DNA from: a virus | Taxonomy: Duplodnaviria; Heunggongvirae; Uroviricota; Caudoviricetes | IMG/VR virus record: IMGVR_UViG_3300042863_001217 | DNA length: 64,000 nt | Reading direction: 5' to 3' (one strand) | Shown: one piece after another, positions 9,879-54,321 of the stretch | Layout of the letters: each line of letters begins with the position of its first letter | How positions within the stretch are numbered: the stretch's first letter is position 1 | Translations under genes and position numbers: made by a program | The notes under the pieces: model-generated | Database searches by the model: none | Told to the model about the DNA's origin: nothing | Seen by the model: only the letters and a program-made list of their open reading frames with translations

Positions 9879-10565
9879 TTATTTATCTAACATTGCATTC
9901 TGCAATTCTTTAAGTTTTGCTTCAGCTTCTTTTTGTCCTTTTTCTGTTTTTTTATAGACCTCTTTTTTTTCTTTAACATTATCACAACCAATCTTATAAT
10001 CACTACAAGAATATTGTGCTCCTGTTAAAGAATGTGCTGCTTCACTAAATGCTGCCCCAGCATTTTTGTACTCAGTAATGTAATATGAAAGCCAAGCTTT
10101 AGTTTCTGCAGAAAAATCTTTGCTTATTTTTTGCATTTTATCTTCAAGTTTTTTTGCATTAACTTCATTTTCATCTTCGATAGCTTTGTCTCTTTTAGCA
10201 AGACCGTCCATCATTCTTTCTTCTTCAGCTGGACAATTGTTTTTCATATAAGACCATCTAAAAGATTGTCTACTATTTATGAGCGTGTTATATTTGTTTA
10301 TAAATTTAGCAAGTTGACCATATTCCTCTTTGGCATCAGCTCCACCTTGTAGTTCTGCTAATTCACCTTCCATTTCAACTTTCTGTGCATCCAAGTCTGA
10401 TAATTGAAGCTCAGCTTCATCTTCATCCATGTCTCCTTTTTCTACAGCAGACTGAATTTCTTCCATTCTATCATCAAGTTCAGTTAGATCATTTTGAAGA
10501 TCTTTGATTTTTTTGTCATTACTAGCCTCACCAATAAATTGTTCAAATAGTTTAATATGTTTCAT
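9879..10565 (-). CDS. Leader-family protein (MKHIKLFEQFIGE...), coiled-coil rich
   Basis: Conserved N-terminal decapeptide. Acidic coiled-coil body. Confidence 0.6.
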   Translation of the reverse strand: MKHIKLFEQFIGEASNDKKIKDLQNDLTELDDRMEEIQSAVEKGDMDEDEAELQLSDLDAQKVEMEGELAELQGGADAKEEYGQLAKFINKYNTLINSRQSFRWSYMKNNCPAEEERMMDGLAKRDKAIEDENEVNAKKLEDKMQKISKDFSAETKAWLSYYITEYKNAGAAFSEAAHSLTGAQYSCSDYKIGCDNVKEKKEVYKKTEKGQKEAEAKLKELQNAMLDK

Positions 10566-10600
10566 GTTTGTATTTTGTTTTTATTTTTGTTTTTATTTAA

Positions 10601-11344
10601 TTAGTCCCAAACTTCAGTGTATGTACCACCTACTAACATTACTCCTTGTTGCCAATCAAAATCTAAACGATCCTTTTTGAACATGTAATGTAATTTAATA
10701 ATAGATTCAGTTTCTTCTTCTGATAAACCTAATGCAATATTAAGATCTTTTATTTTGTATGCTTTATCGTAAGATTTTGTGATGTGTACTGATGCTTGAC
10801 TTCCGTAACCTTGATCTCTTGATCCAATTTGTTTATACTCTGCTTTATCTGCTTTCCAAAATGCAAGTATACGTTGGATCATATCGCTGGTTAGAGCTTC
10901 TTTTTGTGTAGATTTAATCCAATTTTTAATATCTTTAGCGAAATTAACTTTCTTTGGATTTGATACATCAATTGCTGTGTAATAATTTATGTAATCTTGT
11001 CCAGATACACCTATACTAGCTCTACCTGGTTTTGGTTGTGCTTTACTAATAACTTCAAAATACGTATAAGAAGCTTTAATATACATTGGACTTATATTAC
11101 AGTCTTGTAATATCTTTGCTCGTTTTTTGTCAATCCATGACCAATCAGGAGCCTCATATGAATTAGTTATTTGCACATATCCATTACTGTAGTCATATGT
11201 TTTAGAATCTTTACCACCTCTTTGGTAACCTACATCTGAAAGGTTTGATAATAAAGCTTTTTCGAAATCTTGTACTAATGCAACTTCTTCAGGATTTACT
11301 TCACCTTCATTAATGAATTGTTCAAATAATTTAATCTTCTTCAT
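10601..11344 (-). CDS. Leader-family protein (MKKIKLFEQFINEG...)
   Basis: Conserved N-terminus. 247 aa. Confidence 0.6.
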   Translation of the reverse strand: MKKIKLFEQFINEGEVNPEEVALVQDFEKALLSNLSDVGYQRGGKDSKTYDYSNGYVQITNSYEAPDWSWIDKKRAKILQDCNISPMYIKASYTYFEVISKAQPKPGRASIGVSGQDYINYYTAIDVSNPKKVNFAKDIKNWIKSTQKEALTSDMIQRILAFWKADKAEYKQIGSRDQGYGSQASVHITKSYDKAYKIKDLNIALGLSEEETESIIKLHYMFKKDRLDFDWQQGVMLVGGTYTEVWD

Positions 11345-11354
11345 ATCTGTTTTA

Positions 11355-11903
11355 TTATTTTGCGTCTATTGATAAGAATAGGCTTTGTCTAATCTCTATG
11401 TTGTTTTGACCAACACTCGACATATATTCTCCTGCTATGATAGTTTCAATTCCAGATACTAATGCGTCGTTTTGCATTCCACTTAGTTTTCTTACATATT
11501 TACCAGCATCTACATCATCTGCAAATCCAACGTTAATTACAAAATCACTAGGAATTCTAACGAATAACTCTGTACCATCTGGTCTATTAAGACCATTAAT
11601 TTGATCATCTACCCATTCTTGTTTGCTTAATGCAGCCATAATATAAACAATAGCTTCTTTATCTTTGACTTGTTTCATAACTTCGTCAGCAATAATCTCA
11701 GCTCCTTCTTTATCAGCCCATTTTGACCAAACTTGATTAATTTCTTTAAGAGTATCTTGAACGTCTCCTTCAAATTTTATTTTTTCAACCTCTTTTTTAA
11801 ATGCAAATAACACTTTTCCAGCGATACCTTTAGCACCATACATACCTGTCATTTGATATGCTTTTTCATTTACGAATTGTTCGAATAATTTAATGTGTTT
11901 CAT
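11355..11903 (-). CDS. Leader-family protein (MKHIKLFEQFVNEK...)
   Basis: Conserved N-terminus. 182 aa. Confidence 0.6.
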   Translation of the reverse strand: MKHIKLFEQFVNEKAYQMTGMYGAKGIAGKVLFAFKKEVEKIKFEGDVQDTLKEINQVWSKWADKEGAEIIADEVMKQVKDKEAIVYIMAALSKQEWVDDQINGLNRPDGTELFVRIPSDFVINVGFADDVDAGKYVRKLSGMQNDALVSGIETIIAGEYMSSVGQNNIEIRQSLFLSIDAK

Positions 11904-11906
11904 GTT

Positions 11907-12224
11907 CTATTTAGATATTTTATTCTTGCTTTCAAATTCAGTTACTTTAGCATATGCCGAAGACTTCATATCGCCTTTTGCTTTTTTAACAAGTTCTGCG
12001 AACTCTTTAGCTGTTTTCATGTCTGGAAATGGAAGTGAAGTTGTATAATCTGGTCCACTATATACATCAAATGGTGCATATTGATCATATTCTTGTTCTG
12101 TATAAACTCCAAATTGATCACTTTCTATATCAATGATGTTTTCTTTTTTAATAGGAAGGAATACTATCCATTCTTGAGATTTTCCTTCTTTTACGAATTC
12201 TTCATATAATTTTGCGTACTTCAT
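11907..12224 (-). CDS. Leader-family protein (MKYAKLYEEFVKEG...)
   Basis: Conserved N-terminus. 105 aa. Confidence 0.55.
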   Translation of the reverse strand: MKYAKLYEEFVKEGKSQEWIVFLPIKKENIIDIESDQFGVYTEQEYDQYAPFDVYSGPDYTTSLPFPDMKTAKEFAELVKKAKGDMKSSAYAKVTEFESKNKISK

Positions 12225-12817
12225 TATGTCATTTTTGGGTATTTTTTCTTAATTTCTTTATAGAATTTCTTGTAGTTTGTACCAGACATGTGATCTTCAG
12301 CTGCTCTAAGCAAATCTTCTAAAGAAGTCCACATTGTATTTGCTAATTGGTCTTGTGTTGTTGAAACTTGAGCCATTCTGTCTAGAATAGAATCAATTAT
12401 TTCAGGATTTAAAACAGTTTCAGTGCTAGGTTTTTCTGGACCCGCTGCTCTTTTAAGTGTCCACCAATCAACTTTCTTAGGAATAGTGTATGAAACAATT
12501 CCTTTTTGTTGGTCATTTGGACTAATTTGTCCAGGTTTTCCAATATTACTAGTGATTTTATCTAAATCTAAATTATCATCAAAACCTTTTAATGCTTTCT
12601 GAATATCTTTAGTTAGATCCACATCTGCCATATTTGGCTCGGTTCTAAGATATATCATTGAAGTCGATGACATGTTAAATTCAACGCCTTTTACTTTAGA
12701 AAGCTCTTTCTTAAATTGTTTTTGATACTCATCAACATCTAACCCATTATTATATCCTGGGAAAATATCCATCTTAGCTTCATTAATAAATTCTTCGTAT
12801 AGTTTTATGTACTTCAT
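12224..12817 (-). CDS. Leader-family protein (MKYIKLYEEFINEA...)
   Basis: Conserved N-terminus. 197 aa. Start overlaps the neighbouring stop (ATGA). Confidence 0.6.
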   Translation of the reverse strand: MKYIKLYEEFINEAKMDIFPGYNNGLDVDEYQKQFKKELSKVKGVEFNMSSTSMIYLRTEPNMADVDLTKDIQKALKGFDDNLDLDKITSNIGKPGQISPNDQQKGIVSYTIPKKVDWWTLKRAAGPEKPSTETVLNPEIIDSILDRMAQVSTTQDQLANTMWTSLEDLLRAAEDHMSGTNYKKFYKEIKKKYPKMT

Positions 12818-13101
12818 TATTTCTTTTTTATGTTTTTACCATTTGGTGTTAATTCTCCGTTATCATCCATCACCGTAAAATGTTCTCTCGAATTTCCTTG
12901 TGTTAATTCTATAGATAAACCTTTGTTCATACCACCTGATTCAGTTGAAGACCACAATCTAACTACAGTCCAAATACCTTTTTCACCTTCAACTTTAACC
13001 TTATCCCATGTCTTAACTTCAGTTTGATCAGTAAATGATTTTATTAATTTATCTTCATTAGACTCGTTAATAAAATCTTCGTATAGTTTTGCATATTTCA
13101 T
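12817..13101 (-). CDS. Leader-family protein (MKYAKLYEDFINES...)
   Basis: Conserved N-terminus. 94 aa. Confidence 0.55.
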   Translation of the reverse strand: MKYAKLYEDFINESNEDKLIKSFTDQTEVKTWDKVKVEGEKGIWTVVRLWSSTESGGMNKGLSIELTQGNSREHFTVMDDNGELTPNGKNIKKK

Positions 13102-14788: not shown

Positions 14789-14801
14789 TGCTAAATTTTA
14801 T

Positions 14802-28935: not shown

Positions 28936-29664
28936 TTATTGTTTTTTTGCTGCTAGTTGTTCTTGAATCCAACGTTTACCTAATGGATTTTGAACTGGTG
29001 TACCCAAGTTTCTGTTAATTTGCTTTTCGGCTTGATCTAATAGATCTTCACCATATGCTGAATTATCAACAATTAACATTTTATCAGATCCAAATAGTTT
29101 TTGAAAGTGACCTAAGTTATTTTGAACTTCTTTCCACATTTTTTCAACCATTTTATCTTCTAACTTTCTTTCTCTCATTTGATTTCGCTCTAATGCAACT
29201 TCTAATGATGTATTAACGAAAACCATATATGTATCATAACCTAAGTTTTGATAAATATCTCTAGTTTTACTAATCTTATCAAAATCTTTACCAGTTCCAT
29301 CAATTACTTGACCTAATCTAGAATTTAAATAGTTATTTTGAAGTCCTCTGGTCAAGTTTTTAGCTTTATCTCTAATAACCATAACTTCAGCCCATTTTTC
29401 AGGATCTTTTGCTAAATCTGCAAGATCTCCTGCATTATATCCAGCATCTTTTAAGCCTTTTTCGAATGCATTATCGTTATTAACTAATTTAAGTCCAGTT
29501 GCATAAGACACTGAACCTACTTTTCCTTTTGGAAAATCAAAAAGTTCTGTTGCAACATAAGATTTACCACTTCCTGGTCCACCTGCCATAAAGAATGCCT
29601 TAAGGATTCCTGGATCATATACGCCCTCGCTTACAAATTCTTCAAATAATTTGATATATTTCAT
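28936..29664 (-). CDS. Leader-family P-loop kinase-like protein (MKYIKLFEEFVSEG...)
   Basis: Conserved N-terminus followed by a GGPGSGKSYVA Walker A motif, as in nucleotide/nucleoside kinases. Confidence 0.55.
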   Translation of the reverse strand: MKYIKLFEEFVSEGVYDPGILKAFFMAGGPGSGKSYVATELFDFPKGKVGSVSYATGLKLVNNDNAFEKGLKDAGYNAGDLADLAKDPEKWAEVMVIRDKAKNLTRGLQNNYLNSRLGQVIDGTGKDFDKISKTRDIYQNLGYDTYMVFVNTSLEVALERNQMRERKLEDKMVEKMWKEVQNNLGHFQKLFGSDKMLIVDNSAYGEDLLDQAEKQINRNLGTPVQNPLGKRWIQEQLAAKKQ

Positions 29665-29696
29665 GATTATAAATTTATTTATATACTATATATCAA

Positions 29697-30153: not shown

Positions 30154-32589
30154 TTATCTTGGCCAAAGCATTACTGTTCCTGGATCTGCAAATTGACCAT
30201 ACCATCCACACTTATCTAAAAATTTAGCAAGATCTTTGTGAATACCTTGTGGAAATTTAGATCCTCCATGGTAATAGTTAAACATTTCATCTTTCGCATT
30301 TGGCATTAATAAACCGTCGTTACCACCTAACCAAATACCACCTTCTTCACCGTCAAACTCTTCCGAATTTTTTACGAAACTAAGACCATATTTAGTAACC
30401 ATTACGTTTTTCATTTCTACTCTTGATAAAATCTTAGCTTCATTCAAGTACTTAGATTCCTGTAAAGAATGCTCGTTAACAATAGACTCATCAACCTTAA
30501 TTCCTCTTTTCTTAAGAAGTTTTTCAATTTCTTGATATGCTTTCTTATAATCTGCTTTTGGATATTCAAATCCTTTTAACCAATTAGCATATCCACTTAA
30601 TGCGTCATCATACATTTTCTTTAGATCTTCATCAGATGTTGAATTACTAAAGAAAAATGGTCCTACAAATGCCTCGTCAATAGAACCTGACATTAATTTA
30701 TATTTCCATGATTTTAGTTTCTTTTCTAATTCAGCTTTATCTTCTGCTTCAAAATCAAACTCATCATTGTAACCATAGTATCCTTTACCACGTTTTTCAA
30801 TGTAAGTTAATCCATCTTCACCGTCGTAGATTGCAATTTCTCTATCGTTATTATAAGTACCTTCTAAGATCTTTACACGTACGATGTCTTTTTTGGCAAT
30901 ACTATCTCCGTTAAAAACTAAATCATTATACATTTTACCAACAGAACCTTTAATTCCTTTTTTGGACTTTGTATCGATTGATAATACTTTATTAGTTCTG
31001 CTAAAATAATCTAACATATCGTAATCAAGATCTTTAGCATCTACTGTTTCGCCAGGACCTGGAAAGTTTTCATCTAAAGATTCAGTTTGAAAATGATTTC
31101 TATTAATCTTATTCAAATAATTTAATTCTTCGTCATTTAATTTAGTTGCAACTAATGATCTAAATTTACCACGTTGTTGAGAAGGCGTAAGCTTCATAAA
31201 TTCAACAATATCTTTGTCATCTTTAATTTTATCAATGATTGATTTTACAGCTTTATCAGATTTTCTTTTTTGCCACCAATTTTTTAAATCTTCAATTGGA
31301 GTAGTACCACCACCTGCACTTATTTTATTACCTAATAATGCTAATTGTCCCATAACCATGGCAGATTGCATTAGTATTAAAAATGTGGTTGCAGCATCTT
31401 CATTAATTGTAGATTCTAACATTTCTTCTTGCTCTGGAAAGTTTAAACTTTTACCAGCTGCAACTTGAATACCCGTAGCACCTCTTAATGAAACTCTTAA
31501 ATTGAATTTATCTCCATTTTCATTTTCAGCTTCAAAATCTCTAGTTGCTCCAGTTTTTGAACCAAATCCAGTTATTGTGTAAGTTCCTTTTTGAGTTTTA
31601 ATTTTGTTTCCAATTTTAAAACCATTTGCCATTTTAGGACTAATCATTCCTTCAACTAATTTCACCAATTTCGAATCGATCCATTCTTCACTAGAACCAT
31701 CCCATCTAATTAGAGATTTATTAGCTCTAGTTTTTACTAACTCACCAGTTCCTTGTAATTCACCTTTAGTATCATAAACATGTACTAACTCAACTGCTTC
31801 ATCGATTGATTCATCACCGAATCTATAACCACTAAACATGTTTTTAGCTTTTACAAGATCATCTTGTGTACCCGTTCCTTGATATAATATTTTACAACTA
31901 TCAGAATAGTTTTTTGCGTCACTTAGAACTTCTCTTACATCTGCTGCTCCAATTGCAATATAACCCGCACTGGTTGAATTTCCAGGATTTGTATATAAAA
32001 CAAATTTTTGTTTTTTAGCTTCATTAAGGGTTGATTCTAACAATATTAATCCAGCTGCCTTTGCTTCATCTCGTAATTCATCAAATTCTTCTATATCACT
32101 TCCTTTGATATAATCTGTTAAACCTCTAAAATTTTTAAAGTTTAACTTCTGTATTATATTAGTATTGCTATTATAAATAGCTCTTAAAAAATCTTTAACA
32201 CCAGCAGAACTTAAATGTAATTCATTTAAAGTTTCTTCAAGGCTAATTGATTCCAATACTTTAGAATTATCTTCAATAGCTTCTAATGTATCTGGCATTG
32301 TTCTAATTCCCACTCCGAATTTTTCATCCCATCTTTCAGATTTATATCCTGTACAATATTTGTCTTTAAGATCTTTATGATTTGCAAAAACACCACCTGG
32401 TAAATTAGTGATAATAGTACCCTTTGGTAAAACTACATTAATATAATTACCAATCTTAGCATCTTTGACATCCTTCTTTAATTCGTATTTACGATTATCT
32501 AAAGTGGTGATAGTTCTACCGCTTGTTCCAGAAATCATTTGCTTTGAAACTTCGCTTATGAATTCTTCAAATAATTTAACTTTCTTCAT
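30154..32589 (-). CDS. Leader-family large protein, 811 aa (MKKVKLFEEFISE...)
   Basis: Conserved N-terminus. Internal ...DESIVNEHS...YLNEAK... motifs. Confidence 0.6.
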   Translation of the reverse strand: MKKVKLFEEFISEVSKQMISGTSGRTITTLDNRKYELKKDVKDAKIGNYINVVLPKGTIITNLPGGVFANHKDLKDKYCTGYKSERWDEKFGVGIRTMPDTLEAIEDNSKVLESISLEETLNELHLSSAGVKDFLRAIYNSNTNIIQKLNFKNFRGLTDYIKGSDIEEFDELRDEAKAAGLILLESTLNEAKKQKFVLYTNPGNSTSAGYIAIGAADVREVLSDAKNYSDSCKILYQGTGTQDDLVKAKNMFSGYRFGDESIDEAVELVHVYDTKGELQGTGELVKTRANKSLIRWDGSSEEWIDSKLVKLVEGMISPKMANGFKIGNKIKTQKGTYTITGFGSKTGATRDFEAENENGDKFNLRVSLRGATGIQVAAGKSLNFPEQEEMLESTINEDAATTFLILMQSAMVMGQLALLGNKISAGGGTTPIEDLKNWWQKRKSDKAVKSIIDKIKDDKDIVEFMKLTPSQQRGKFRSLVATKLNDEELNYLNKINRNHFQTESLDENFPGPGETVDAKDLDYDMLDYFSRTNKVLSIDTKSKKGIKGSVGKMYNDLVFNGDSIAKKDIVRVKILEGTYNNDREIAIYDGEDGLTYIEKRGKGYYGYNDEFDFEAEDKAELEKKLKSWKYKLMSGSIDEAFVGPFFFSNSTSDEDLKKMYDDALSGYANWLKGFEYPKADYKKAYQEIEKLLKKRGIKVDESIVNEHSLQESKYLNEAKILSRVEMKNVMVTKYGLSFVKNSEEFDGEEGGIWLGGNDGLLMPNAKDEMFNYYHGGSKFPQGIHKDLAKFLDKCGWYGQFADPGTVMLWPR

Positions 32590-34629: not shown

Positions 34630-34968
34630 TTAATATTCAAATGGTGGTGTACCATAATCAGCACGTTTAACAGCATACCAAACTCGACCTACTCTGAAAT
34701 ACCAGAATGTTGGTGTGTCAATGATATAGTGTTGTCCTTTAATAGTTACGTCTTTGTAACCACCTCTTGTAAAGTTCTTTGTTACAGGAACTCCGTCGTC
34801 CCATGTTTTATCAGTAGATTGTGCTTTGAAAGTTTTACCACTAAAGGTTGCTAAATAAATTTCTGCAGGTTTACCTTCTGATTTTTCGTCTTTAGTAAAA
34901 GCTTCTAAACCGATTGGCATTTCATTACCTTCGTTTACGAATTCTTCAAATAATTTAGTGTGTTTCAT
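34630..34968 (-). CDS. Leader-family protein (MKHTKLFEEFVNEG...)
   Basis: Conserved N-terminus. 112 aa. Confidence 0.55.
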   Translation of the reverse strand: MKHTKLFEEFVNEGNEMPIGLEAFTKDEKSEGKPAEIYLATFSGKTFKAQSTDKTWDDGVPVTKNFTRGGYKDVTIKGQHYIIDTPTFWYFRVGRVWYAVKRADYGTPPFEY

Positions 34969-35169
34969 TTGTAATCTTGTTTTTCACGAGGTTGTCTCTT
35001 TCTTAAATTAATTTCGTCTCTTAATTCTTTGATCCTATCTTTGATAATCATAATTCTATAATTATGCCATTTTCTAACTATAAAACATTTAGATTTATTT
35101 GCTTCTAAGTTTTCTAGTTCGGATTCAAAAAATTTAACCAATTTAAAGAGTGCCACCGTGTGTATTGTT

Positions 35170-35508
35170 TTATTGTTTTTCGTTAGCTCTGCACCAAACT
35201 ACTGCATCTTTTGGAGTTTTTAACTCTTCATCATATCCACTTAAGTCATAAATACCTAAGATAGTTTGACCATCGTCATTTAAATAGAATGAAAATTCTT
35301 CCATGTCACCTTCGTGTCTTGGAGCTTCAGATTCTAATCCATTTGCAAAGTGTACAATATGTGGAAATTCTTCTTGATCGTCATGTCCCCAAATAAGTTT
35401 TTCTACATTTTTGGCTTTAGCAAGTTCTTTAAATAATTTTACTAAAATCTCTGGTTTAGGTGATTTAGCTTCATTTAAGAATTCTTCGAATAATTTAGTG
35501 TGTTTCAT
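35170..35508 (-). CDS. Leader-family protein (MKHTKLFEEFLNEA...)
   Basis: Conserved N-terminus. Confidence 0.55.
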   Translation of the reverse strand: MKHTKLFEEFLNEAKSPKPEILVKLFKELAKAKNVEKLIWGHDDQEEFPHIVHFANGLESEAPRHEGDMEEFSFYLNDDGQTILGIYDLSGYDEELKTPKDAVVWCRANEKQ

Positions 35509-35514
35509 AATATC

Positions 35515-35844
35515 TTATTTATATTCTTTTTCGTATTTAGCTTTTAATTCTTCCCAAGCTGCTTTGTATTTAGCAGGAATTTTAGAAGGTTCATAAATTC
35601 TTGAATTTGATCTTTTGCTTGATCCTACTTTATAGTTTGAACCAGTGTATTGTTCCATGAATTCATCTCCAACTTTTTTATCACCATCAGCTTTAACATA
35701 AATACCATATGTGATAAATGTATCACCGTCTAAGTGACCTTCTAAAATATCACAACAAGGATTATGATCCTTGTTAGAATTAAATTTAAAGTCAATGAAT
35801 TTACCTTCGTTGATAAATTGTTCAAATAGTTTAATGTGTTTCAT
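35515..35844 (-). CDS. Leader-family protein (MKHIKLFEQFINEG...)
   Basis: Conserved N-terminus. Confidence 0.55.
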   Translation of the reverse strand: MKHIKLFEQFINEGKFIDFKFNSNKDHNPCCDILEGHLDGDTFITYGIYVKADGDKKVGDEFMEQYTGSNYKVGSSKRSNSRIYEPSKIPAKYKAAWEELKAKYEKEYK

Positions 35845-40518: not shown

Positions 40519-41045
40519 ATGTTTGTTTGTATATTTTACTTTATATATTCTTATTTTTTACCAGCACCGGAACCTTTACCGCTTCCGCTTCCAGAACCTG
40601 AACCACTTCCACTTCCAGAACCTGAACCTTTACCACTTGAACGGCCAGAACCTGTACCATAAGCATATCCTGTTCCACCTACATTTGATCCACTTCCAGA
40701 GCCTGATCCTGATCCAGAGCCTGAACCACTGGTAGCATTTTTACCTGTTTTTGGTTTTTTAGGTGTAAGTTTTTTAGCTTTTGCTTCTTTAGCAATTGGT
40801 GCTACTTCTTTTGCTGGTTTAGCAGCTTTAATTTTAGTAGGTTTTTTTACTGTAGGTTCTACAATAGGATCAAGTACTGAACCTCTTTTAGAATCTTCTT
40901 TCTCTTTTTTTGCAATTGCTTTAAAAATAGTTATAATAACTACTAAAGAGACTAATGCTACTGCGATGATTGTTGTACTCATAATTTTGTTTTTTATTAT
41001 TTTAGATTATATATTTATATTATTTATCTTCATTTTGTTTCATAA

Positions 41046-41357: not shown

Positions 41358-42104
41358 TTAAATGTTTTTTAGATTTTCTACCATCCAATCCAATTCTACT
41401 TGACTAGCTGCATCTGAGATGGCATTATCAGGATCTGGATGTGTTTCAATAAATACTCCATCATACTCAAAAATACGTGCAGCTAAAGAATATTGCTTTG
41501 CAAGTTTTCTACTTCCACCTGTAATACCATCACCTGACATTTGAGTTGAGTGCGTACAATCAAAGATAACTTTATCTGCAAATTGTTTCATTACATCAAC
41601 TCCTCTGAAATCTACAATTAACCTATCAAAACCAAATTGAGTACCACGTTCAGTAATCCATACTTGACATGTTGGATTTACTTCTTTAATCTTGGTAACA
41701 GCATGTTTCATTGCATCAGCAGATAACCACTGACCCTTCTTAACGTTGATAATATTAAAGTGTTTTGCACATTCTATAAGAAGATCTGTTTGTCTACATA
41801 AGAATGCTGGAATTTGAATCACATCTACTACATCTGATAATGGTAATGCTTGATCTGCTGTGTGAATATCTGTAACGATTTTAAGACCTGGAAATTTAGC
41901 TTTGACATTTCGCATAATCTCGATACCTTCGTCTAAACCCGGACCTCGATTAGAATGAATTGAAGTTCGATTGGCTTTATCAAAGCTACCTTTAAGATAC
42001 CAATCTTTTCCTTGCATTATAGGATATAGTGCATTTGCTACTTCTGTGAAGTTGTCCTCGCTTTCAATGCTACAAGGACCTAAAATATATGTGTAATTTT
42101 CCAT
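41358..42104 (-). CDS. kdsA: 3-deoxy-8-phosphooctulonate (KDO-8-phosphate) synthase
   Basis: Motifs GPCSIES, KGSFDKANRTSIHSNRGPGL, DVVDVIQIPAFLCRQTDLL and IFDCTHS align closely with bacterial KdsA/DAHP-synthase family proteins. Confidence 0.85.
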   Translation of the reverse strand: MENYTYILGPCSIESEDNFTEVANALYPIMQGKDWYLKGSFDKANRTSIHSNRGPGLDEGIEIMRNVKAKFPGLKIVTDIHTADQALPLSDVVDVIQIPAFLCRQTDLLIECAKHFNIINVKKGQWLSADAMKHAVTKIKEVNPTCQVWITERGTQFGFDRLIVDFRGVDVMKQFADKVIFDCTHSTQMSGDGITGGSRKLAKQYSLAARIFEYDGVFIETHPDPDNAISDAASQVELDWMVENLKNI

Positions 42105-43850: not shown

Positions 43851-44450
43851 TTATTTGTATGCTCTAATTGTTGATATTTGTATTCCTTCATGTTCTTGTT
43901 CTAATGATTTTACTAATACTAAATTAGCCTCATCATCATCGTAAAATTGTAGGTCACTGTAACCCATATCGATCAATTCTCTAAACGCTTGTTTTTTACG
44001 ATCCGATATACTACCTTTGAATTTATGTACTGAATCATTCACTGCAAAAATAAGATCTTTGTCGATTCTAAATCCAACATGTTCTCTTAACCATCTATAA
44101 ATCATTTCTCTATCATCTCTTGCTGTAACAATTCCAACTGCGATGCGTGATTTATAAGCTTCTTTAAATATGTCTAAGTAATGTTCAATCATTTGACCAG
44201 CTTTCATAATCTCTAATGATTTAAATTCATCAAAGTTTAATTCATGATCTGCATGTTTTTCATAACTATTAAATTCTTCTGGAGTCAGTGAATAACATTC
44301 TCCTGTTTTCTTATTGCAAACCTTTATTTTTGCTGATGAAATTACTAAAGTATCGTCAAGATCAAACACAAGAATCTTGGAACCATGATATGGTTTTCCA
44401 GCTCTGTTTACCTCATTTAGGTATTCTGTGTAATTTTTAACGTGTTTCAT
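43851..44450 (-). CDS. HAD-superfamily phosphatase-like protein with degenerate leader (MKHVKNYTEYLNE...)
   Basis: HAD motif I, ILVFDLDDTLV. Confidence 0.5.
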   Translation of the reverse strand: MKHVKNYTEYLNEVNRAGKPYHGSKILVFDLDDTLVISSAKIKVCNKKTGECYSLTPEEFNSYEKHADHELNFDEFKSLEIMKAGQMIEHYLDIFKEAYKSRIAVGIVTARDDREMIYRWLREHVGFRIDKDLIFAVNDSVHKFKGSISDRKKQAFRELIDMGYSDLQFYDDDEANLVLVKSLEQEHEGIQISTIRAYK

Positions 44451-44480
44451 CTTAGCTTATACTTAAAAATCTAATAATGT

Positions 44481-44744
44481 TTATTTATTAGATTCTATTT
44501 TTATTTTCAATGCAGTAAGTTTTATATCAATTTTTGATATTTCTGCTTGCATGGAAAGTTTCTGTGCAGTTAATGCTAACATTTCAGATTTTAATGGATC
44601 CTCTTCGTTTCTCATTGCTTTTGCAGTTTCAGCAGCTTTAGTTTTAATCTCGTTTCTTTTAGAATCTAATTCTCTAACTTTAAGATTTAGGTCAGCTACT
44701 TTTTGAGCATCCTCAAATAATTGGAAAGTTTTCAGGTGTTTCAT
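44481..44744 (-). CDS. Small leader-family protein (MKHLKTFQLFED...)
   Basis: 87 aa, coiled-coil. Confidence 0.4.
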   Translation of the reverse strand: MKHLKTFQLFEDAQKVADLNLKVRELDSKRNEIKTKAAETAKAMRNEEDPLKSEMLALTAQKLSMQAEISKIDIKLTALKIKIESNK

Positions 44745-45036
44745 CTTTTGGTATTTCTTTTTCTATTTCTAGAGTCCATAGTCTATTATTAGGTACTACG
44801 AATTTTCTTTCATGTCCAAAAACATAAAAAGTTGTTTTGTATATATTTTGTCTAACTATTCTAGCTTTCTTTGCGCCTTTAATATAAACTATATCATCTA
44901 CATTAAAATCATTGCCCCATAAAAACTGCATACCAATAACAAGATTAGCAATCATGTCTTTGAATGTAAATGAAATTATAGCTACTGCTGTCACCCAACC
45001 CCATTCTGATATGTATTGTCCTATTAACTCTTTCAT
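44713..45036 (-). CDS. Small membrane protein
   Basis: Hydrophobic N-terminus. Confidence 0.35.
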   Translation of the reverse strand: MKELIGQYISEWGWVTAVAIISFTFKDMIANLVIGMQFLWGNDFNVDDIVYIKGAKKARIVRQNIYKTTFYVFGHERKFVVPNNRLWTLEIEKEIPKDETPENFPII

Positions 45037-45521
45037 ATTAGTCCCATTGCACTTAAATTTTGTAGAACCACTTGTTGACTTAACATTATAACTTGTGAAG
45101 CTTCTATTTTGTCCATAAATTTGGCATTATCAATTTCTTCACGCTGTAATTGCCCTTTAGGTACCACTAGATCTTTAAGTCCTATTTTAGACAGGTCATC
45201 TATTTCAACTATAAAATAATAAATAACTTTATTATACTTATACTTTCTAGAAGTTAAAACAAATGTACGTTCAATTTTACTTATTAAAGATTTAGGAACT
45301 TTAATACCGAACTCTTCATAAGTTTCTCTGATAGCAGCATCTAAATGTGATTCACCTTCTTCGATGCCACCTTTAGATATACCATAACCAGTTCCTTCTT
45401 TTCTACCTCTAGATTGACCTAACAAAATTTTACCATCAAACACAATCGCAAGACCAGCTGAATATCTAGTGTCTAGATATTTCTCGTTGATAAATTGATC
45501 ATATTTTTTTAGGTGTTTCAT
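45033..45521 (-). CDS. Leader-family Nudix hydrolase (MKHLKKYDQFINEK...)
   Basis: Nudix box GGIEEGESHLDAAIRETYEEFGI. Confidence 0.65.
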   Translation of the reverse strand: MKHLKKYDQFINEKYLDTRYSAGLAIVFDGKILLGQSRGRKEGTGYGISKGGIEEGESHLDAAIRETYEEFGIKVPKSLISKIERTFVLTSRKYKYNKVIYYFIVEIDDLSKIGLKDLVVPKGQLQREEIDNAKFMDKIEASQVIMLSQQVVLQNLSAMGLI

Positions 45522-45811
45522 TATGCCGCAGTTTCGTCATCTAATCTTTTAATCTCTTCTTGTATTTCAAATAATCTCCATTCGAAATCAAATAATTCTT
45601 GACGACTTAATTTATTTTGTTTAAATGACTTTTTAGCTCTGCTGTATTCTTCAGTCAATCGCTTAAGTACTTTCTTTAGTTCACTCTTTGTTTGATTAGC
45701 GCCAATCGAATGTTGAGTATTACTCTTGTCTATTTTTACCTCATTCGTTTTTTCAACAACGATCATCTCGAAGTCTGAAAATAGCATTAGAAATTTTTCT
45801 GTAGTGCTCAT
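45521..45811 (-). CDS. Hypothetical coiled-coil protein
   Basis: 96-aa ORF. Confidence 0.4.
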   Translation of the reverse strand: MSTTEKFLMLFSDFEMIVVEKTNEVKIDKSNTQHSIGANQTKSELKKVLKRLTEEYSRAKKSFKQNKLSRQELFDFEWRLFEIQEEIKRLDDETAA

Positions 45812-45884: not shown

Positions 45885-46490
45885 CTAATTGATTTTATAT
45901 TCAATCCAGTCATGTCCAGTTGAGTTAATGTTTGGAAAATAAAATTCAAATTTATTATTATTAACTCTAATTATTTTTGTAAATCCTATTGGTACTAATG
46001 CTCCAGTACTTAACCAATTTTGAGGTTTATCTAGAAAATGTACTCTAATTTCTATAGTTACATTTGAAAATACTTTTGATAAATCCTTTTCAAAATGTTC
46101 TAGTTCTTTCCATGGTCCTCTATTTAATGATTCATGTTGTAATGCACAATTTAAATAAGAGAATGTATTTCGTAAATTAGTTATATTACATGTAAATGCA
46201 CCAGCAGGTGCCATATGACCTTTGTCCCATATATTATCAACATAGTCATCATCGTCACTTGTTACAACACCTGTCCATTTCTTAAATGACATACCATCTC
46301 TTTCTTCATCACCAGTTGGGCATTGAACTTTATATTTAATAACCAAAGGTTGTTGAAATCTTTGAGAATATTCAATTTCAAATATACTCGTTTTGATTTT
46401 AACATTTGCAAGACCTGTTTGTGCATTTGCACTTGTAATTAACAATAATGTTAGGAACGTTATTGCAATTATGTTTTTTATTTGTTTCAT
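45885..46490 (-). CDS. Secreted DNA/RNA non-specific endonuclease-like protein
   Basis: N-terminal signal peptide. Active-site-like motif WDKGHMAPAG (D-R/K-G-H-x-x-P). Confidence 0.5.
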   Translation of the reverse strand: MKQIKNIIAITFLTLLLITSANAQTGLANVKIKTSIFEIEYSQRFQQPLVIKYKVQCPTGDEERDGMSFKKWTGVVTSDDDDYVDNIWDKGHMAPAGAFTCNITNLRNTFSYLNCALQHESLNRGPWKELEHFEKDLSKVFSNVTIEIRVHFLDKPQNWLSTGALVPIGFTKIIRVNNNKFEFYFPNINSTGHDWIEYKIN

Positions 46491-47374
46491 TTAATTGATT
46501 TTATCCAGGATAATAGGTTTGTTTCTGGTTTCCAACCTAATTGCCTAGTGATTTTTGTAATATCTGCAGCGGAACGCATAGGTTCCTCTCTTTTTTCTAC
46601 ATGTTTGATTTCACCACCAAATGCCTCAGCCACTTCAATAACTTGAGTTTCTGTACCAGATCCAACATTATAAATTGGCATAGTGGTCTTAAATTCGGCC
46701 TGACTACTCATTATAATAGCATTTACCACATCTTTAACATAAATCCAATCTCTAGTTTGTGTGCCATCACCAGTTACGGTAATAGGTTGATAAGATTCAT
46801 ATTGTTGTAAGAATATGGGCACTGCACTTCGGTATCCACCAGTAGCCCTTTGACCTTCACCAAAGACATTAAAAAATCTTAGAGCTGTACACTTAAACTG
46901 AGGTTTATTATAACTCATCATCATGTGTTCCATTTCCAATTTAAATTCGGCATAAGGACTCATCGGATTAGGTGTATCACTCTCTTTTAATGGCACTTGT
47001 TCTGAATCACCATAGACCGCAGCAGTGGATGCAGCTACCATTGAAGTAGCTCCCATTTCATAAGCCCAACTCATAACTCTTCTACTTGCAACACATATGC
47101 CATTCCAATATTTCATTGGTTGTTCTATGCTTTCAGGTACACTAATCGGTGCAGCTAAATGAAATAGAGTATCAAATTTATAAGTTGGCAATTTACTACT
47201 AATAATATCAGTAGCTTCAATAATTAAATTTGGATGTGGTTCTAAATTGTCCATGTCACCAGTACTAAAATTATCAAGTACAATTACTGACCATCCATTG
47301 TTTAGTAATTCTTTAACCAGATATGAACCAATAAAACCAGCTCCACCTGTAACTACAGCTTTTCTATTCTCCAT
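46487..47374 (-). CDS. NAD-dependent epimerase/dehydratase (UDP-sugar 4-epimerase-like)
   Basis: VVTGGAGFIGSYLV Rossmann motif. Confidence 0.7.
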   Translation of the reverse strand: MENRKAVVTGGAGFIGSYLVKELLNNGWSVIVLDNFSTGDMDNLEPHPNLIIEATDIISSKLPTYKFDTLFHLAAPISVPESIEQPMKYWNGICVASRRVMSWAYEMGATSMVAASTAAVYGDSEQVPLKESDTPNPMSPYAEFKLEMEHMMMSYNKPQFKCTALRFFNVFGEGQRATGGYRSAVPIFLQQYESYQPITVTGDGTQTRDWIYVKDVVNAIIMSSQAEFKTTMPIYNVGSGTETQVIEVAEAFGGEIKHVEKREEPMRSAADITKITRQLGWKPETNLLSWIKSIK

Positions 47375-50300
47375 ATAATTCTTTATTTATGACAGCAATA
47401 ACTCTGTCTGATCCAATGGTTTTAGTACACTCAAATTGACGATGTGTTCCTTTCCATAAAGGGCACCAATTCCAGTCACCTTTGTCAAATGTATCCCAAC
47501 CCCAACAACCATGACATACTTTATGATTGTTAATATAGATAGCTGATTCAAATTCCACATAAGGATCTGTAAAGCCACTAATAACAATTACTTTGGCTCC
47601 AAGTGCCCATGCGAACCAAGATAAGCCAGAGGAAATTCCAATAAACAGTTCGGCTTCATTAATAGCTCCTGCTACTAATGCCAACTCTTCTGGCAATTGT
47701 TTAACTCCTTTTAATTGACTACCTTCTTTACTAGCATGGTACACACTAATCTCTTTACTATTACACCAGTCAATTGTTTCTTGCCATCCAGTAGGATTAT
47801 TCCAGTACTTAGCTTGCGCTGTACTTTGGGTAGCGATTACAATAGAGCGTTTTTTTGCAGTAGACTTGATCAAGAATTCGCGCGCTAGTTGAGGTCTTTG
47901 TTCTACGTACTCAGTACCTAAGCGATCTGAGGCGATTTTCCCCAGAGGTATAGTCCTCCAGTCGTATTTATGTTCTGAACGTTTCCATGGTTCTTCCATG
48001 GTGTAAAAGACTCCGATAGTGATTAGCGCACCCTTGTTAGGCACTGACCAGTCAATGATGTCTATGCCCTTTGAGCTATACCATGCTTTGTCAAACAGCC
48101 AGGGTTTGTGTGTCTTCACATATAATCGTGATAGCTTATGTGTGTCTATCACTGTGTGCAGCTGTCCCATGAAGCTCAATGTGTCTCCAAGTGATGAACT
48201 TGCCATTTCCACTGTAAGTTCCTGGCCTTCAAGGCTCAGACGTTCTGAATGAACTAGTTGGTCATTACTGTAAACCTTAACAGTCCACTGAGTCCACCAA
48301 TTTCTTGCGGGCTTGTACCAGTTTCCTGCCTGTAAGTCTGTTGCGTTCCATACTAGATCTTCATGATCGTAGAACTCGGCCCGTAATTGAGTGCCTCCAG
48401 TTTCCTTGATCGTTAATTTCGGACCATCTTGATATTCTAATGTCCATTCAGGTTGTTTGTATATCGGAGCTTTTTGAGGGCCTCGTGGGGTAGTTAAACA
48501 TTGTTGGTACCATTGGATATGCTGATCAGTGAAACGTTTTAGATCATCAGCTGGGATATTTTTTCCTTGTGCCTCGGATGATTTGAGTGTTTTGATTAAT
48601 TGGTCAACATTTTCATGGAGATCGTTTGTGAATGGGACAATGTAAGGTGTAAACATGTCTTTATATTGCTCTAAGTCCCTAGAGAATGTGATTAGACCAT
48701 GACCGATTGCTTCACGTAGTGCGAGTGGACTACACTCCCATGTTGAGTTAAACATAAATGCGTCACATGCACTCATAAAGACGTCAACATCGTTTCTCTC
48801 ACCCCATACAGTAACATTACTTGGCAACTTCTTCATAATTGGTCCCCAATATTGTTCGAAGTTTTCTGCTTGATTACCTACGAAATGAAATTGATACTTT
48901 CCAGGAAATCTAGCTTCAACTATTCTGGCAATATCAACACCTTCTGCTTGATTCTTACCTTGTGTCCAAAGACCTACATTTAATATATGTGTCTTATCAA
49001 TGGCTAAACCTAATTTAGCTCTTGATTTTGCTTTATCAAACGCTGAAGGTTTTTGATTTAATATAGGATATTCTACAACTGGTTTTAAACCATCTCTATT
49101 TCCGAAAGTTTCTAAATGATATGGAGTACACATCATGTACATATCTGGATCATTAATCTTATCGTTTGGATCAAACCAAATATTGTGAGATGTTTCTACA
49201 ATTTTCCATTGCTTATTGTAAAGCCATTCCATTGCACTTTGATCAATTTTATTAAATCCATCAAATGATTCTGGACATTCATCAATATGAATAATATCTG
49301 GGTTTATTTCTAAAATCTTTGCCTTTAATCTTTCACCTCGTTCGGTAATGTCTATTGAATTTAAGAATCCTAATGAATGAAATCTAGCACCTAATTTTTC
49401 TATAAGTTGATCTCGTTGCACATTGTAAATATCACTATATTGTGTATACTCTACTAAGTGAATTTCATATTCTTTTACATCTAACATAGCTTCGACTCTC
49501 TTTAAGACAAATTGAGGCATGCCTCCTGTACTTAAATGTGGTGCTAAGAATAGTAATTTAGTTTTGTTTGTCATTTCTTTGGTATTAGGTTTCATATAGA
49601 CATTGTCTACTAATAAGTCATTATACAAATCTATAACTGCATCGAATGTTTTATCTACTGTAGGATGACACTCGAATGTTGGTTTATATTCTAAACAATA
49701 TAATTGTGGCGGAACAGCTTGAATAGTTCCATGTTCAATAATATTGTATTTCATATTACTGGAACAGAAAATATCGCAACTTCCACCAATATATTTGTAT
49801 TTATAATCTTGTGAACCCTTTCTATAAGGTGCTCTTAATTTTGGATCTATTGAACTACCTAATTGAATAATATTTACGTCAGTAGTTCCTGCAATGTGCA
49901 ATAAACCAGAATCCATAGTTACTATAGCTCTAGCTTTATGATTCATCATCCATCTTAATTCAGCTGGATCATTTGTTGCATCATTAAGTAAGTTAACTCC
50001 AAGCTTTATATTCAAATCCATTACGGGTTTGTCTATTGAGAATGTACCGAATTCATGAGAATCTCGGCCAACCGCAACCACTGGAATACCTCTATCATTT
50101 AATTTATCAACAAGTTCTTGCCATTTATCTTGATCCCATGTTCTAGTTGCCCAGGTATAAGTTGGGTGTATTATAACATAGTTTTCAAATCCAAGATTTC
50201 TTTCACGTTCAATATACAAATCCATTTCCATTTCATCTTGAGTTAAACTAAACCCTAATGAAACTGCATGAAATTGTCTAATATCCATATTAGAAGATCT

Positions 50301-50570
50301 GAATTCTACTTGTTCACCTCTTAGATCATATGCTTTGCCAACGATTGGCATAAATGTACGATAAACCTTTATGTCGGAGTCATATCTAAGAGGGTCATCC
50401 AACTTTAATGCTTTTGACACAAGTGGATGACCCTCAAATAAGAAAGGTTTACTAGAAAATACTATAAGTTGTGACTCACACGCTTTAGCTAACTTCCTAA
50501 GTGTAGGAATTGCTGCTATCGTGTCACCTAATGCAGGTGTATCTATACATATCGCAACTTGTTTTGACAT
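47364..50570 (-). CDS. Multidomain glycosyltransferase with N- and C-terminal GT9 (heptosyltransferase-like) domains
   Basis: N-terminus ICIDTPALGDTIAAIP. Two ...MDSGLLHIAG... / ...GISSGLSWFAWALGAKVIVISGFTDP... motifs resemble the RfaC/RfaF family. Confidence 0.55.
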   Translation of the reverse strand: MSKQVAICIDTPALGDTIAAIPTLRKLAKACESQLIVFSSKPFLFEGHPLVSKALKLDDPLRYDSDIKVYRTFMPIVGKAYDLRGEQVEFRSSNMDIRQFHAVSLGFSLTQDEMEMDLYIERERNLGFENYVIIHPTYTWATRTWDQDKWQELVDKLNDRGIPVVAVGRDSHEFGTFSIDKPVMDLNIKLGVNLLNDATNDPAELRWMMNHKARAIVTMDSGLLHIAGTTDVNIIQLGSSIDPKLRAPYRKGSQDYKYKYIGGSCDIFCSSNMKYNIIEHGTIQAVPPQLYCLEYKPTFECHPTVDKTFDAVIDLYNDLLVDNVYMKPNTKEMTNKTKLLFLAPHLSTGGMPQFVLKRVEAMLDVKEYEIHLVEYTQYSDIYNVQRDQLIEKLGARFHSLGFLNSIDITERGERLKAKILEINPDIIHIDECPESFDGFNKIDQSAMEWLYNKQWKIVETSHNIWFDPNDKINDPDMYMMCTPYHLETFGNRDGLKPVVEYPILNQKPSAFDKAKSRAKLGLAIDKTHILNVGLWTQGKNQAEGVDIARIVEARFPGKYQFHFVGNQAENFEQYWGPIMKKLPSNVTVWGERNDVDVFMSACDAFMFNSTWECSPLALREAIGHGLITFSRDLEQYKDMFTPYIVPFTNDLHENVDQLIKTLKSSEAQGKNIPADDLKRFTDQHIQWYQQCLTTPRGPQKAPIYKQPEWTLEYQDGPKLTIKETGGTQLRAEFYDHEDLVWNATDLQAGNWYKPARNWWTQWTVKVYSNDQLVHSERLSLEGQELTVEMASSSLGDTLSFMGQLHTVIDTHKLSRLYVKTHKPWLFDKAWYSSKGIDIIDWSVPNKGALITIGVFYTMEEPWKRSEHKYDWRTIPLGKIASDRLGTEYVEQRPQLAREFLIKSTAKKRSIVIATQSTAQAKYWNNPTGWQETIDWCNSKEISVYHASKEGSQLKGVKQLPEELALVAGAINEAELFIGISSGLSWFAWALGAKVIVISGFTDPYVEFESAIYINNHKVCHGCWGWDTFDKGDWNWCPLWKGTHRQFECTKTIGSDRVIAVINKELYGE

Positions 50571-54306: not shown

Positions 54307-54321
54307 GACTTTGTGTTTTAT

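Follow-up and report, generated by a model that had tools for sequence, protein, structure and literature searches.

A predicted capsid-targeting leader on Nudix and HAD-superfamily enzymes of an uncultured phage distantly related to T4

A 13-residue N-terminal leader is carried by a Nudix hydrolase and a HAD-superfamily phosphatase that are encoded within positions 43851-45521 of a 64,000-nucleotide stretch of a tailed-phage genome (Caudoviricetes; IMG/VR record IMGVR_UViG_3300042863_001217), referred to here as the window. The leader probably loads both enzymes into proheads, where it would be cut after Glu13, and the enzymes would then be ejected with the DNA. We infer binding, cleavage, packaging, ejection and substrates from analogy with phage T4 and from comparative anatomy. 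The original prediction had placed three open reading frames (ORFs) with one common targeting peptide in this cluster, and the ORF list bears out their coordinates, all on the minus strand. Its identification of a Nudix hydrolase and a HAD phosphatase stands, with catalytic motifs intact in both. Its view of the common N-terminus as a separable targeting or processing module gains support from the likeness to the T4 capsid-targeting sequence (CTS), from a gp21-family protease-scaffold gene in related genomes, from the position of the leader outside the predicted folds, and from its being present, shortened or absent on orthologous enzymes. Two parts need correction. The peptide is common to the Nudix and HAD proteins, whereas the third protein, of 87 amino acids (aa), bears a variant tag only; and the three tagged ORFs are interrupted by an untagged MscS beta-domain gene (44713-45036) between the small protein and the Nudix gene.

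The leader follows the consensus M-K-x-[ILV]-K-x-[FY]-x-x-[FY]-[ILV]-N-E. A length-tolerant scan for Met, then [FY]xx[FY][ILVM]xE and an open frame, returns 14 matches in the window, whereas 100 shuffles average 0.11 and never exceed 1. Glu lies exactly at residue 13 in 13 of these, all 13 on the coding (minus) strand; the fourteenth match is an internal Met of a 1192-aa ORF. Two further variant tags start at 9438 and 44744. The DNA 5' of the tagged genes is unconserved and the leader codons vary synonymously (CAC/CAT, TTA/CTA, TTC/TTT, ATT/ATC/ATA, GAA/GAG), so selection acts on the leader peptide. By eye only, no Shine-Dalgarno-like sequence is evident 5' of the tagged genes. Beyond the window, a DNA scan of IMG/VR with the exact leader returns 49 loci on contigs of up to 236 kb, in which 109 ORFs fit the leader pattern (a few of them spurious); their cargo is diverse and often lies in tandem arrays. 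Such arrays in related contigs have little in common beyond the leader.

The T4 CTS and the internal proteins IPI, IPII, IPIII and Alt are reportedly treated in work by Mullaney and Black from 1996. In the T4 record AF158101, IPII and IPIII begin MKTYQEFIAE followed by A, Alt begins MELITELFDE followed by D, and IPI begins MKTFKEFTS...ITE followed by A. The first 10 residues of IPIII suffice for encapsidation, targeting proceeds mainly via residues 4 and 7 and processing via residues 8 and 10, and CTS-like sequences are known in close T4 relatives (PMC9026906). The T4 CTS is also sufficient to encapsidate foreign proteins (PMC9026906; PMC3012670). The T4 determinants Y4, F7, I8 and E10 align to positions 7, 10, 11 and 13 of MKHIKLFEQFINE; apart from Met, no positions of the leader are more strongly conserved than these four. 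Like the T4 peptide, the leader is short and N-terminal, starts with MK and ends in [FY]-x-x-F-[ILV]-x-E; its aromatic targeting residues and its C-terminal [IL]-x-E processing site stand where those of T4 do, as expected of a T4-type CTS.

The likeness extends to the wider system. As with the T4 internal proteins, a varied, fast-evolving cargo stands behind a constant tag in a lineage with a gp21-family protease and a scaffold core, and the ADP-ribosyltransferase Alt offers a precedent for enzyme cargo. Several features differ. The leader has 13 residues, with an inserted [ILV]-K-x and a near-invariant Asn12; the window holds 13 tagged genes plus 2 with variant tags in 64 kb, compared with a handful in T4; the cargo comprises Nudix, HAD, kinase, NMNAT-like, HD and ATP-grasp enzymes and polyprotein-like forms; and the protease is fused to a scaffold with tag-like repeats. 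A second point of comparison is provided by phiKZ-like giant phages (SPN3US, 201phi2-1), in which a prohead protease cuts many proteins inside the head after Glu, the virion RNA polymerase and other enzymes among them, and these proteins are ejected into the host (PMC5694885). The processed propeptides on their head-internal and ejected proteins resemble the leader processing predicted here. They are mostly longer than 100 residues, with an A/S/G-x-E motif and an S80-type protease (PMC5694885), and have no one short tag in common. The present lineage is T4-type (Portal_T4, Gp23, S77). A literature search for the leader string gave only noise and no description of this tag, and the terms 'capsid targeting', 'internal head' and 'prohead protease' are absent from a comparative genomics review of jumbo phages.

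Conservation of the leader was measured in Nudix and HAD homologues retrieved via the enzyme domain only, independently of the tag (55 unique N-termini). Positions 1, 2, 4, 5, 7, 10, 11, 12 and 13 are about 90-100% conserved and positions 3, 6, 8 and 9 are free to vary. The residues [FY], [FY], [ILV] and E at positions 7, 10, 11 and 13 reach 98-100%, with N12 in 53 and E13 in 54 of the 55. For the HAD protein, an alignment of 21 sequences (A1) has invariant M1, N12 and E13, Y or F at positions 7 and 10, and L, I or V at position 11.

The leader behaves as a separable module on both enzymes. The Nudix protein has 198 homologues at E<=0.001, and the tag census covers the 120 listed. An extension of the same length occurs in 37 of the 120, where the leader is followed by a linker of 2-4 residues and then ...ETRYSAGL; another 67 have no leader and start directly with M-x-x-K-x-SAGL. 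Among 64 unique Nudix homologues in IMG/VR, a regular expression finds 39 untagged, 21 with a tag of T4 length and 4 with Glu at or beyond position 13, three of which carry a short tag behind an upstream in-frame Met. Examples of short tags are MIKTFSDFMNE followed by S, MIITFNQFINE followed by S, and MMDFEQFVNE followed by A. In one homologue (P0066), the leader is followed by an extra domain and then by ESLLE directly before the Nudix core (ANLEKRISAGL). The HAD family likewise takes three forms: the full tag, a truncated ...[LV]NE followed by A (MSPNELNE/AKPY, MNE/ANIKG), and untagged proteins (MRKVLRVFDLDDT and a 441-aa fusion). In the AlphaFold2 (AF2) models of both enzymes, the leader lies outside the fold. 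The tagged, short-tagged and untagged orthologues, the two models and the diverse cargo of the 49 loci together indicate that the tag is dispensable for the cargo fold and exchangeable among unrelated cargos. The untagged Nudix forms of 200-204 aa (P0049-P0058, P0090 and similar) have a conserved C-terminal extension of about 45 residues after the core end, GLLE/SKTIAGLDVE, and the window Nudix ends where this extension begins. The extension may be a C-terminal propeptide as in T4 Alt.

A gp21-family prohead protease occurs in some of the genomes that carry the leader. T4 gp21 matches 3 of the leader-bearing loci (E 8e-11 to 3e-8). The gene is a protease-scaffold fusion of 560-710 aa (PF03420) with 4,940 homologues, and at one locus with a full head module (L284) Pfam identifies Portal_T4 (5e-70), Peptidase_S77 (1.4e-11, above cut-off), Gp23 (6e-41) and Gp44_lid. 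The head module runs in the order portal, small tagged protein, protease-scaffold, sometimes another tagged protein, and major capsid protein (MCP); a gp55-like gene, called from N-terminal sequence resemblance only, lies 5' of it. The small tagged protein between portal and protease is conserved, has 113-130 aa (MKTIKTFEQFISE followed by AEALKAEDSK...) and occupies the position of gp67/68. The MCP itself begins MA[QN]LINE followed by AEIR. The scaffold half of the fusion contains eight 14-residue repeats, [YF]xx[YH][LIV]AE, in the same pattern as the leader core (for example YSKYLAE/E, YSSYLAE/K, YSEHVAE/K and YAEHIAE/G). Leader-pattern ORFs are present in 38 of 56 protease loci, and several of these are the internal scaffold motif of the protease-scaffold gene itself.

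Related genomes connect this machinery with the gene content of the window. Contig 3300027244_000194 (170,561 bp) carries a protease-scaffold gene (L092) and, about 110 kb away, a locus (L116) that has at least 12 genes in common with the window. Their amino-acid identities are 25-73%, and among them are the tagged HAD (61%), a tagged P-loop kinase (73%) and the MscS-like gene (57%). On contig 3300020187_000009 (148,784 bp) the order of the window is kept: glycosyltransferase, epimerase, endonuclease, p96 (the untagged protein upstream of Nudix), Nudix, MscS-like gene, HAD and a gene of about 520 aa. Three contigs of 234-236 kb combine the protease with a tagged 110-aa protein 81% identical to that encoded at 35515-35844; as close relatives of the window they were rejected and count as more distant ones, since protein comparison finds only this tagged gene and a distantly related methyltransferase in common.

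The window has a G+C content of about 31%. A megablast search with 10 kb of it finds no close DNA match among deposited phages, and its gene content is identical to that of metagenomic contigs of 239,540 bp (JGI 3300034107 Ga0335037_0000003) and 260,917 bp (ENA ERZ27272104 k141_203066), whose coordinates suggest that the genome is circularly permuted and about 239.5 kb long. For the MCP of related contigs, the nearest match is that of the uncultured huge phage LR756500 (52%), followed by Lak (38%), PAU (Sphingomonas, 34%) and PTm1/PTm5 (Tenacibaculum, 34%), and then by Tenacibaculum phage pT24 (29%) and Flavobacterium phage MaF61 (28%). Judged by these proteins, the lineage is a distant clade of T4-like phages; the hosts known for it are mainly Bacteroidota. 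PTm1 was rejected as a cultured model bearing the same tag: its head-module layout is alike and its tag is different. Two of its ORFs (293 and 307 in L358) begin (M)RKLYSVISENFIVE and MKKLYDHISENLVTE, N-termini that may be a counterpart of the tag specific to that lineage and present in a cultured relative.

The complete Nudix box that was first read from the letters is present as GGIEEGESHLDAAIRETYEEFGI, residues 51-73 of the 162-aa ORF at 45033-45521. The protein matches PF00293 above the curated cut-off (E=1e-12), has Thr at the U position following RE, and is matched to Nudix enzymes by Foldseek with probability 1.0; G51, E57, R65, E66, E69, E70 and G72 of the box are invariant in 40 homologues. 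Its AF2 model has a mean predicted local distance difference test (pLDDT) score of 91.3, with low confidence at residues 1-15 only. The fold starts at residue 17, and the low-scoring leader forms a short helix at residues 8-14. The top Foldseek matches are nearly equal (E about 1e-9 to 1e-8, template-modelling score about 0.6) and include Ap4A hydrolases (3i7u, 4mpo), E. coli RppH (7sp3, 4s2y), NUDX1, Dcp2 and NudC; a sequence comparison with the PDB ranks Dcp2 and Ap4A hydrolase best. Membership in the ADP-ribose pyrophosphatase/NadM-Nudix group is not indicated, as 2qjo ranks 29th and scores like Ap4A hydrolase, RppH, NUDX1, Dcp2 and NudC. Because similarity to several Nudix clades is nearly equal, no single substrate class can be assigned, and the substrates of the original prediction (alarmones, NAD or ADP-ribose species, RNA caps) are not told apart by it. 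Taken by sequence and predicted fold, the protein is a putative pyrophosphohydrolase of NudE/Ap4A-hydrolase/RppH-like type.

T4 NudE (gene e.1) has a homologous core (39% over 59 aa), annotated nudix hydrolases of Proteus and Shigella T4-like phages share 32-34% over about 135 aa, and the untagged metagenomic forms begin like NudE (M-K-T-x-SAG...). NudE is annotated in the T4 record as active on flavin adenine dinucleotide, diadenosine polyphosphates, ADP-ribose and NADH. It has no CTS and is cytoplasmic, whereas the window Nudix is tagged and unassigned to a substrate class by similarity. In the right flank (L356 4609-8415, ENA k141_203066), an NAMPT/NAPRTase-family gene, a phosphoribosyltransferase-like gene and a nucleoside deoxyribosyltransferase-like gene look like a capacity for salvage of nicotinamide adenine dinucleotide (NAD), and a tagged NMNAT-like gene (GRFQPFHNGH) occurs in three related contigs (L015, L022, L025). 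A NAD-related Nudix role is possible because of the NAMPT-family gene just outside the window and the tagged NMNAT-like gene in relatives.

The HAD motif DLDDTLV is likewise where it was reported, FDLDDTLV forming residues 29-36 of the 199-aa ORF at 43851-44450. Motifs I (DxD), II (S/T), III (K) and IV (DD) are present on a Rossmann-like core, as in the HAD superfamily, and all of 21 aligned homologues keep D30 and D32, T109, K145 or K152, and D171-173; scores against the Pfam HAD models fall below the cut-offs. Residues 17-182 match PHROG 415, annotated 'polynucleotide kinase' (E=1.6e-12), the top Foldseek match is T4 Pnkp (E=3.7e-3), and class-B acid phosphatases are also near. In an hhalign comparison with T4 PseT, motif I alone is aligned, at a probability of 20%. 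The protein is best read, from sequence and model, as a subfamily-III-type DxDxT phosphatase nearest the Pnkp 3'-phosphatases, with small separation from other HAD families. The closest known systems are the T4 PseT/Pnkp 3'-phosphatase and HAD subfamily III (class-B acid phosphatases, MDP-1). Unlike PseT/Pnkp, to which its similarity is confined to motif I, the window HAD has no fused kinase domain, contains a poorly modelled insert of about 60 residues between motifs I and II, and bears a capsid-type tag. These family relations suggest nucleic-acid ends or nucleotides as substrate.

The arrangement of the cluster is only partly constant. The 87-aa protein retains the aromatic residues at positions 7 and 10 of its tag and has ...LFE-D-A in place of [ILV]-N-E; it has no Pfam or PHROG match and is conserved at 86% and 64% in two related loci (L114 and L115). 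The 107-aa MscS-like protein has one transmembrane helix. Across 63 viral HAD loci, p96, the MscS-like gene and HAD form a conserved trio in 12, and Nudix is a variable, optional insertion within it.

A large tagged protein of 811 aa (30154-32589) provides hints on processing. Within it, (E)S-x-[ILV]-[ND]-E motifs occur seven or eight times at intervals of 70-130 residues; about 2 occurrences of [ILV][ND]E would be expected by chance, as estimated from amino-acid composition. Its fragment after ESIDE (AVELVHVYDTKG...) is 66% identical to a protein of a related locus (L077) after that protein's leader (FVNE followed by AIELVHVYDTDG). Because the internal fragment and the post-leader start coincide, the domain boundary is the residue after Glu in two contexts. 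The 811-aa protein looks like a polyprotein cut by a prohead protease.

In the mechanism that would best join these observations, the cluster genes are part of a large cargo set of an uncultured phage of about 240 kb, distantly related to T4, and the 13-residue propeptide is an extended T4 CTS. The tag would be a short amphipathic helix that mimics one [YF]xx[YH][LIV]AE scaffold repeat and by this mimicry assembles together with the core of the prohead. A serine protease of the gp21 family (Peptidase S77) would cut after the Glu of [ILV]-x-E and free, within the capsid, a mature Nudix predicted to begin at K14 (KYLDTRYSAGLAIVFDGK) and a mature HAD predicted to begin at V14 (VNRAGKPYHGSK). The enzymes would be kept in the head, be ejected with the DNA and act before any phage gene expression, plausibly on nucleotide-derived molecules or RNA ends in early takeover or counter-defence. 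An anti-defence role of the tagged enzymes is plausible.

Several observations weigh against this mechanism. Most homologues of both enzymes have no tag and function untagged, so packaging is not required for the activity of either. Tagged cargo elsewhere includes metabolic-looking NMNAT-like, ATP-grasp and HD enzymes, which would be unusual as capsid contents, and the linkage of HAD to a membrane protein could mean that it works in the cytoplasm or at a membrane. Confidence in the HAD model is only moderate (pLDDT 70.8). A protease gene was not found in the window or its +-10 kb flanks. The same-species 165-kb IMG/VR contig 3300042472_000628 was not returned by three viral-contig scans with different protease queries, the 260,917-bp contig is absent from the best 120 of the 4,940 protease homologues, and nothing in the window matches the head proteins of T4 or L040. 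The gp21-family protease, scaffold and T4-type portal and MCP are present in related genomes (the protease-scaffold on 3300027244_000194, the full head module in L284) and were not retrieved for the window contig or the same-species contig; because the window genome's own protease gene was not retrieved, the protease link to its phage rests on related genomes. The tagged Nudix is found in no cultured phage of the collection, and PTm1, the nearest cultured relative examined, lacks this exact tag. The T4 late-promoter motif TATAAATA is not enriched in the window (12 observed vs 13.6 expected) and is absent 5' of the three cluster genes.

Two alternatives concern the tag. It might be a prohead-protease propeptide for temporal control rather than delivery, the enzymes remaining cytoplasmic in the producing cell, serving nucleotide-pool and NAD housekeeping like T4 NudE, and being switched on, off or sequestered late, when proheads and protease are present. 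The frequent untagged orthologues, the untagged and cytoplasmic NudE, the nearby NAD-salvage and nucleotide-metabolism genes, and the NMNAT-like and ATP-grasp enzymes among tagged cargo elsewhere are all in keeping with this. It nevertheless seems unlikely: a T4 tag of the same type suffices to encapsidate foreign proteins (PMC9026906; PMC3012670), gp21-family proteases are active inside proheads, so that a substrate must be inside to be cut, and tagged genes are found within the head module too, in the gp67/68-like slot. That the leader is unrelated to the capsid is very improbable. As an A/T-rich translation start, an oligomerisation or membrane helix, or a recombination handle for cassette shuffling, it would suit the A/T-rich starts and the lack of a visible Shine-Dalgarno-like sequence, and hypervariable tandem arrays in which leader DNA is the sole part common between genomes would fit cassette exchange. 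Yet synonymous codon variation and the strict positions 7, 10, 11 and 13 show selection on the peptide, and these positions are exactly the T4 CTS determinants. Moreover, MCP and portal are untagged while other ORFs in the head module are tagged, the scaffold repeats carry the same motif, and truncated forms retain the ...[LV]NE end alone, which is sensible for a cleavage site and not for translation.

Two further proposals concern the enzymes. If HAD were the missing KdsC, the phosphatase for 8-phosphorylated 3-deoxy-D-manno-octulosonate (KDO), and Nudix served housekeeping, the cluster would amount to an auxiliary metabolic module of surface-glycan synthesis. A KdsA-like gene lies two genes off, KdsB-like and SIS (KdsD-like) genes stand in the left flank, and YrbI/KdsC is the third Foldseek match of HAD (E=0.013). 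Against this, kdsA adjoins HAD in only 2 of the 63 HAD loci, no Hydrolase_3/KdsC Pfam match exists, the best family match is PHROG 415, and a capsid-type tag on a pathway enzyme would be left unexplained. The KdsC identity was therefore rejected on linkage and on family matches, YrbI being a weak Foldseek match, and the module as a whole has very little probability. A sub-case of the preferred capsid-delivery reading treats the tagged HAD and the tagged kinase at 28936-29664 as a split polynucleotide kinase-phosphatase, packaged in advance so that it could heal, as infection begins, the tRNA or RNA ends that host anticodon nucleases have cut. HAD matches PHROG 415; the kinase matches PHROG 505, annotated 'polynucleotide kinase' (E=2e-7), and AAA_33; and each of the two carries the tag, with 1.6 kb between them in L116. 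This pairing is nonetheless rather unlikely, for the kinase is near HAD in 1 of the 63 loci, no RNA ligase was found in the window or flanks, the alignment to PseT covers motif I alone, and the best match of the kinase is a PHROG of unknown function (PHROG 12810, E=5e-37). A conserved split enzyme is thus unsupported by gene neighbourhood and by the search for a ligase. A recurrent protein of about 430 aa (EGGAAGHMSHPFD) was considered as an RNA ligase and rejected, having no Pfam or PHROG match.

Table 1. Coordinates of the cluster genes, their motifs and other tagged genes and motif copies in the window.
Feature	Position	Strand	Basis or remark
Tagged HAD-superfamily phosphatase, 199 aa	43851..44450	-	N-terminus MKHVKNYTEYLNE; subfamily III-like
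HAD leader, residues 1-13, MKHVKNYTEYLNE	44412..44450	-	Alignment of homologues
HAD motif I DLDDT, residues 30-34; nucleophile D30, acid/base D32	44349..44363	-	Read from sequence; invariant in 21-sequence alignment A1
87-aa coiled-coil-like protein, variant tag MKHLKTFQLFED followed by A	44481..44744	-	ORF list
Untagged 107-aa membrane protein, MscS beta-domain	44713..45036	-	PF00924 E=8e-6
Tagged Nudix hydrolase, 162 aa, N-terminus MKHLKKYDQFINEK	45033..45521	-	PF00293, AF2 model, Foldseek
Nudix leader, residues 1-13, MKHLKKYDQFINE, predicted cut after E13	45483..45521	-	Homologue alignment, AF2 model
Nudix box, residues 51-73, GGIEEGESHLDAAIRETYEEFGI, Gx5Ex7REUxEExGU	45303..45371	-	Read from sequence
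Untagged 96-aa protein p96, conserved partner upstream of Nudix	45521..45811	-	ORF list, locus comparison
Tandem array of six canonical tagged genes: 9879-10565, 10601-11344, 11355-11903, 11907-12224, 12224-12817, 12817-13101	9879..13101	-	Leader scan
Tagged P-loop kinase, 242 aa (Zeta_toxin/AAA_33)	28936..29664	-	Pfam E=8e-10 and 8e-9; PHROG
Tagged 811-aa polyprotein-like cargo	30154..32589	-	Leader scan; 7-8 internal (E)S-x-[ILV]-[ND]-E motifs
Three further small tagged genes: 34630-34968, 35170-35508, 35515-35844	34630..35844	-	Leader scan
TATAAATA copies near starts	14799-14806, 29676-29683, 35516-35523, 41012-41019, 54319-54326	-	Motif scan

The window and its flanks contain further genes. 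The variant tag at 9438 (MKHIKLFEQFSKTLNE) begins at an internal Met of a 229-aa ORF (9172-9861) beside the tandem array. Five of the nine minus-strand copies of TATAAATA lie at most 40 nt 5' of a start codon, two tagged genes among them, and these five may be T4-type late promoters. Inside the 1192-aa ORF (36940-40518, minus strand), around 37210-37550, are repeats of about 90-230 bp that many related contigs also have; the ORF further contains an internal tag-like motif, MAQEAKDFKSFVKE. On the same strand, a 906-aa ORF (18296-21016) shows weak VWA and intein-splicing-domain matches, and the adjacent 1294-aa ORF (21030-24914), in a stretch of locally high GC content where long ORFs overlap, encodes a tail-fibre-like protein with collagen repeats. 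A DNA/RNA non-specific endonuclease (45885-46490, minus strand; PF01223 E=1e-18) has a signal-peptide-like N-terminus, MKQIKNIIAITFLTLLLITSANAQ, which suggests that it is exported. A KdsA-like gene (41358-42104), a 1068-aa multi-glycosyltransferase (47364-50570) and epimerases are present in the window, with KdsB-like and SIS (KdsD-like) genes at L355 3111-4405 in the left flank; by its gene content, the phage seems to encode KDO and surface-glycan synthesis. Two thymidylate-synthase-family genes and a ClpB-like AAA+ protein also lie in the left flank (L355 1-215 and 4409-5524), and these may indicate pyrimidine hypermodification of the phage DNA.

The CTS principle itself is already known. 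The novelty lies in finding the tag, in an extended form, in a clade that is distant and uncultured; in how many genes carry it; in cargo made up of enzymes and polyproteins; in the repeated tagging of NudE-type Nudix; and in the likeness of the tag to scaffold repeats. A far-reaching extension, possible and on balance doubtful, is that an abundant aquatic distant-T4-like clade (contigs of about 130-260 kb) pre-loads a whole toolkit via one universal tag of 10-13 residues modelled on scaffold repeats. This toolkit would comprise Nudix, Pnkp-like phosphatase, P-loop kinase, NMNAT-like, HD and ATP-grasp enzymes and protease-cut polyproteins; the injected proteome would be readable from metagenomes, and Nudix and phosphatase would neutralise nucleotide- or NAD-based immunity, or decap or heal RNA, at DNA entry.

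If the tag works as in T4, sequence alone would list the proteins injected by uncultured phages; such proteins are very difficult to recognise, and first-strike counter-defence factors are enriched among them. The CTS principle would then reach beyond T-even coliphages to large phages of a distant clade that is abundant in the environment and related to PAU, PTm1, Lak and huge uncultured phages, and about 13 added residues would turn an ordinary NudE-type Nudix or Pnkp-like phosphatase into an injected effector. The likeness of the tag to scaffold repeats suggests that the CTS is recognised by scaffold mimicry, and the leader would offer a natural packaging tag for engineering phages of non-model hosts.

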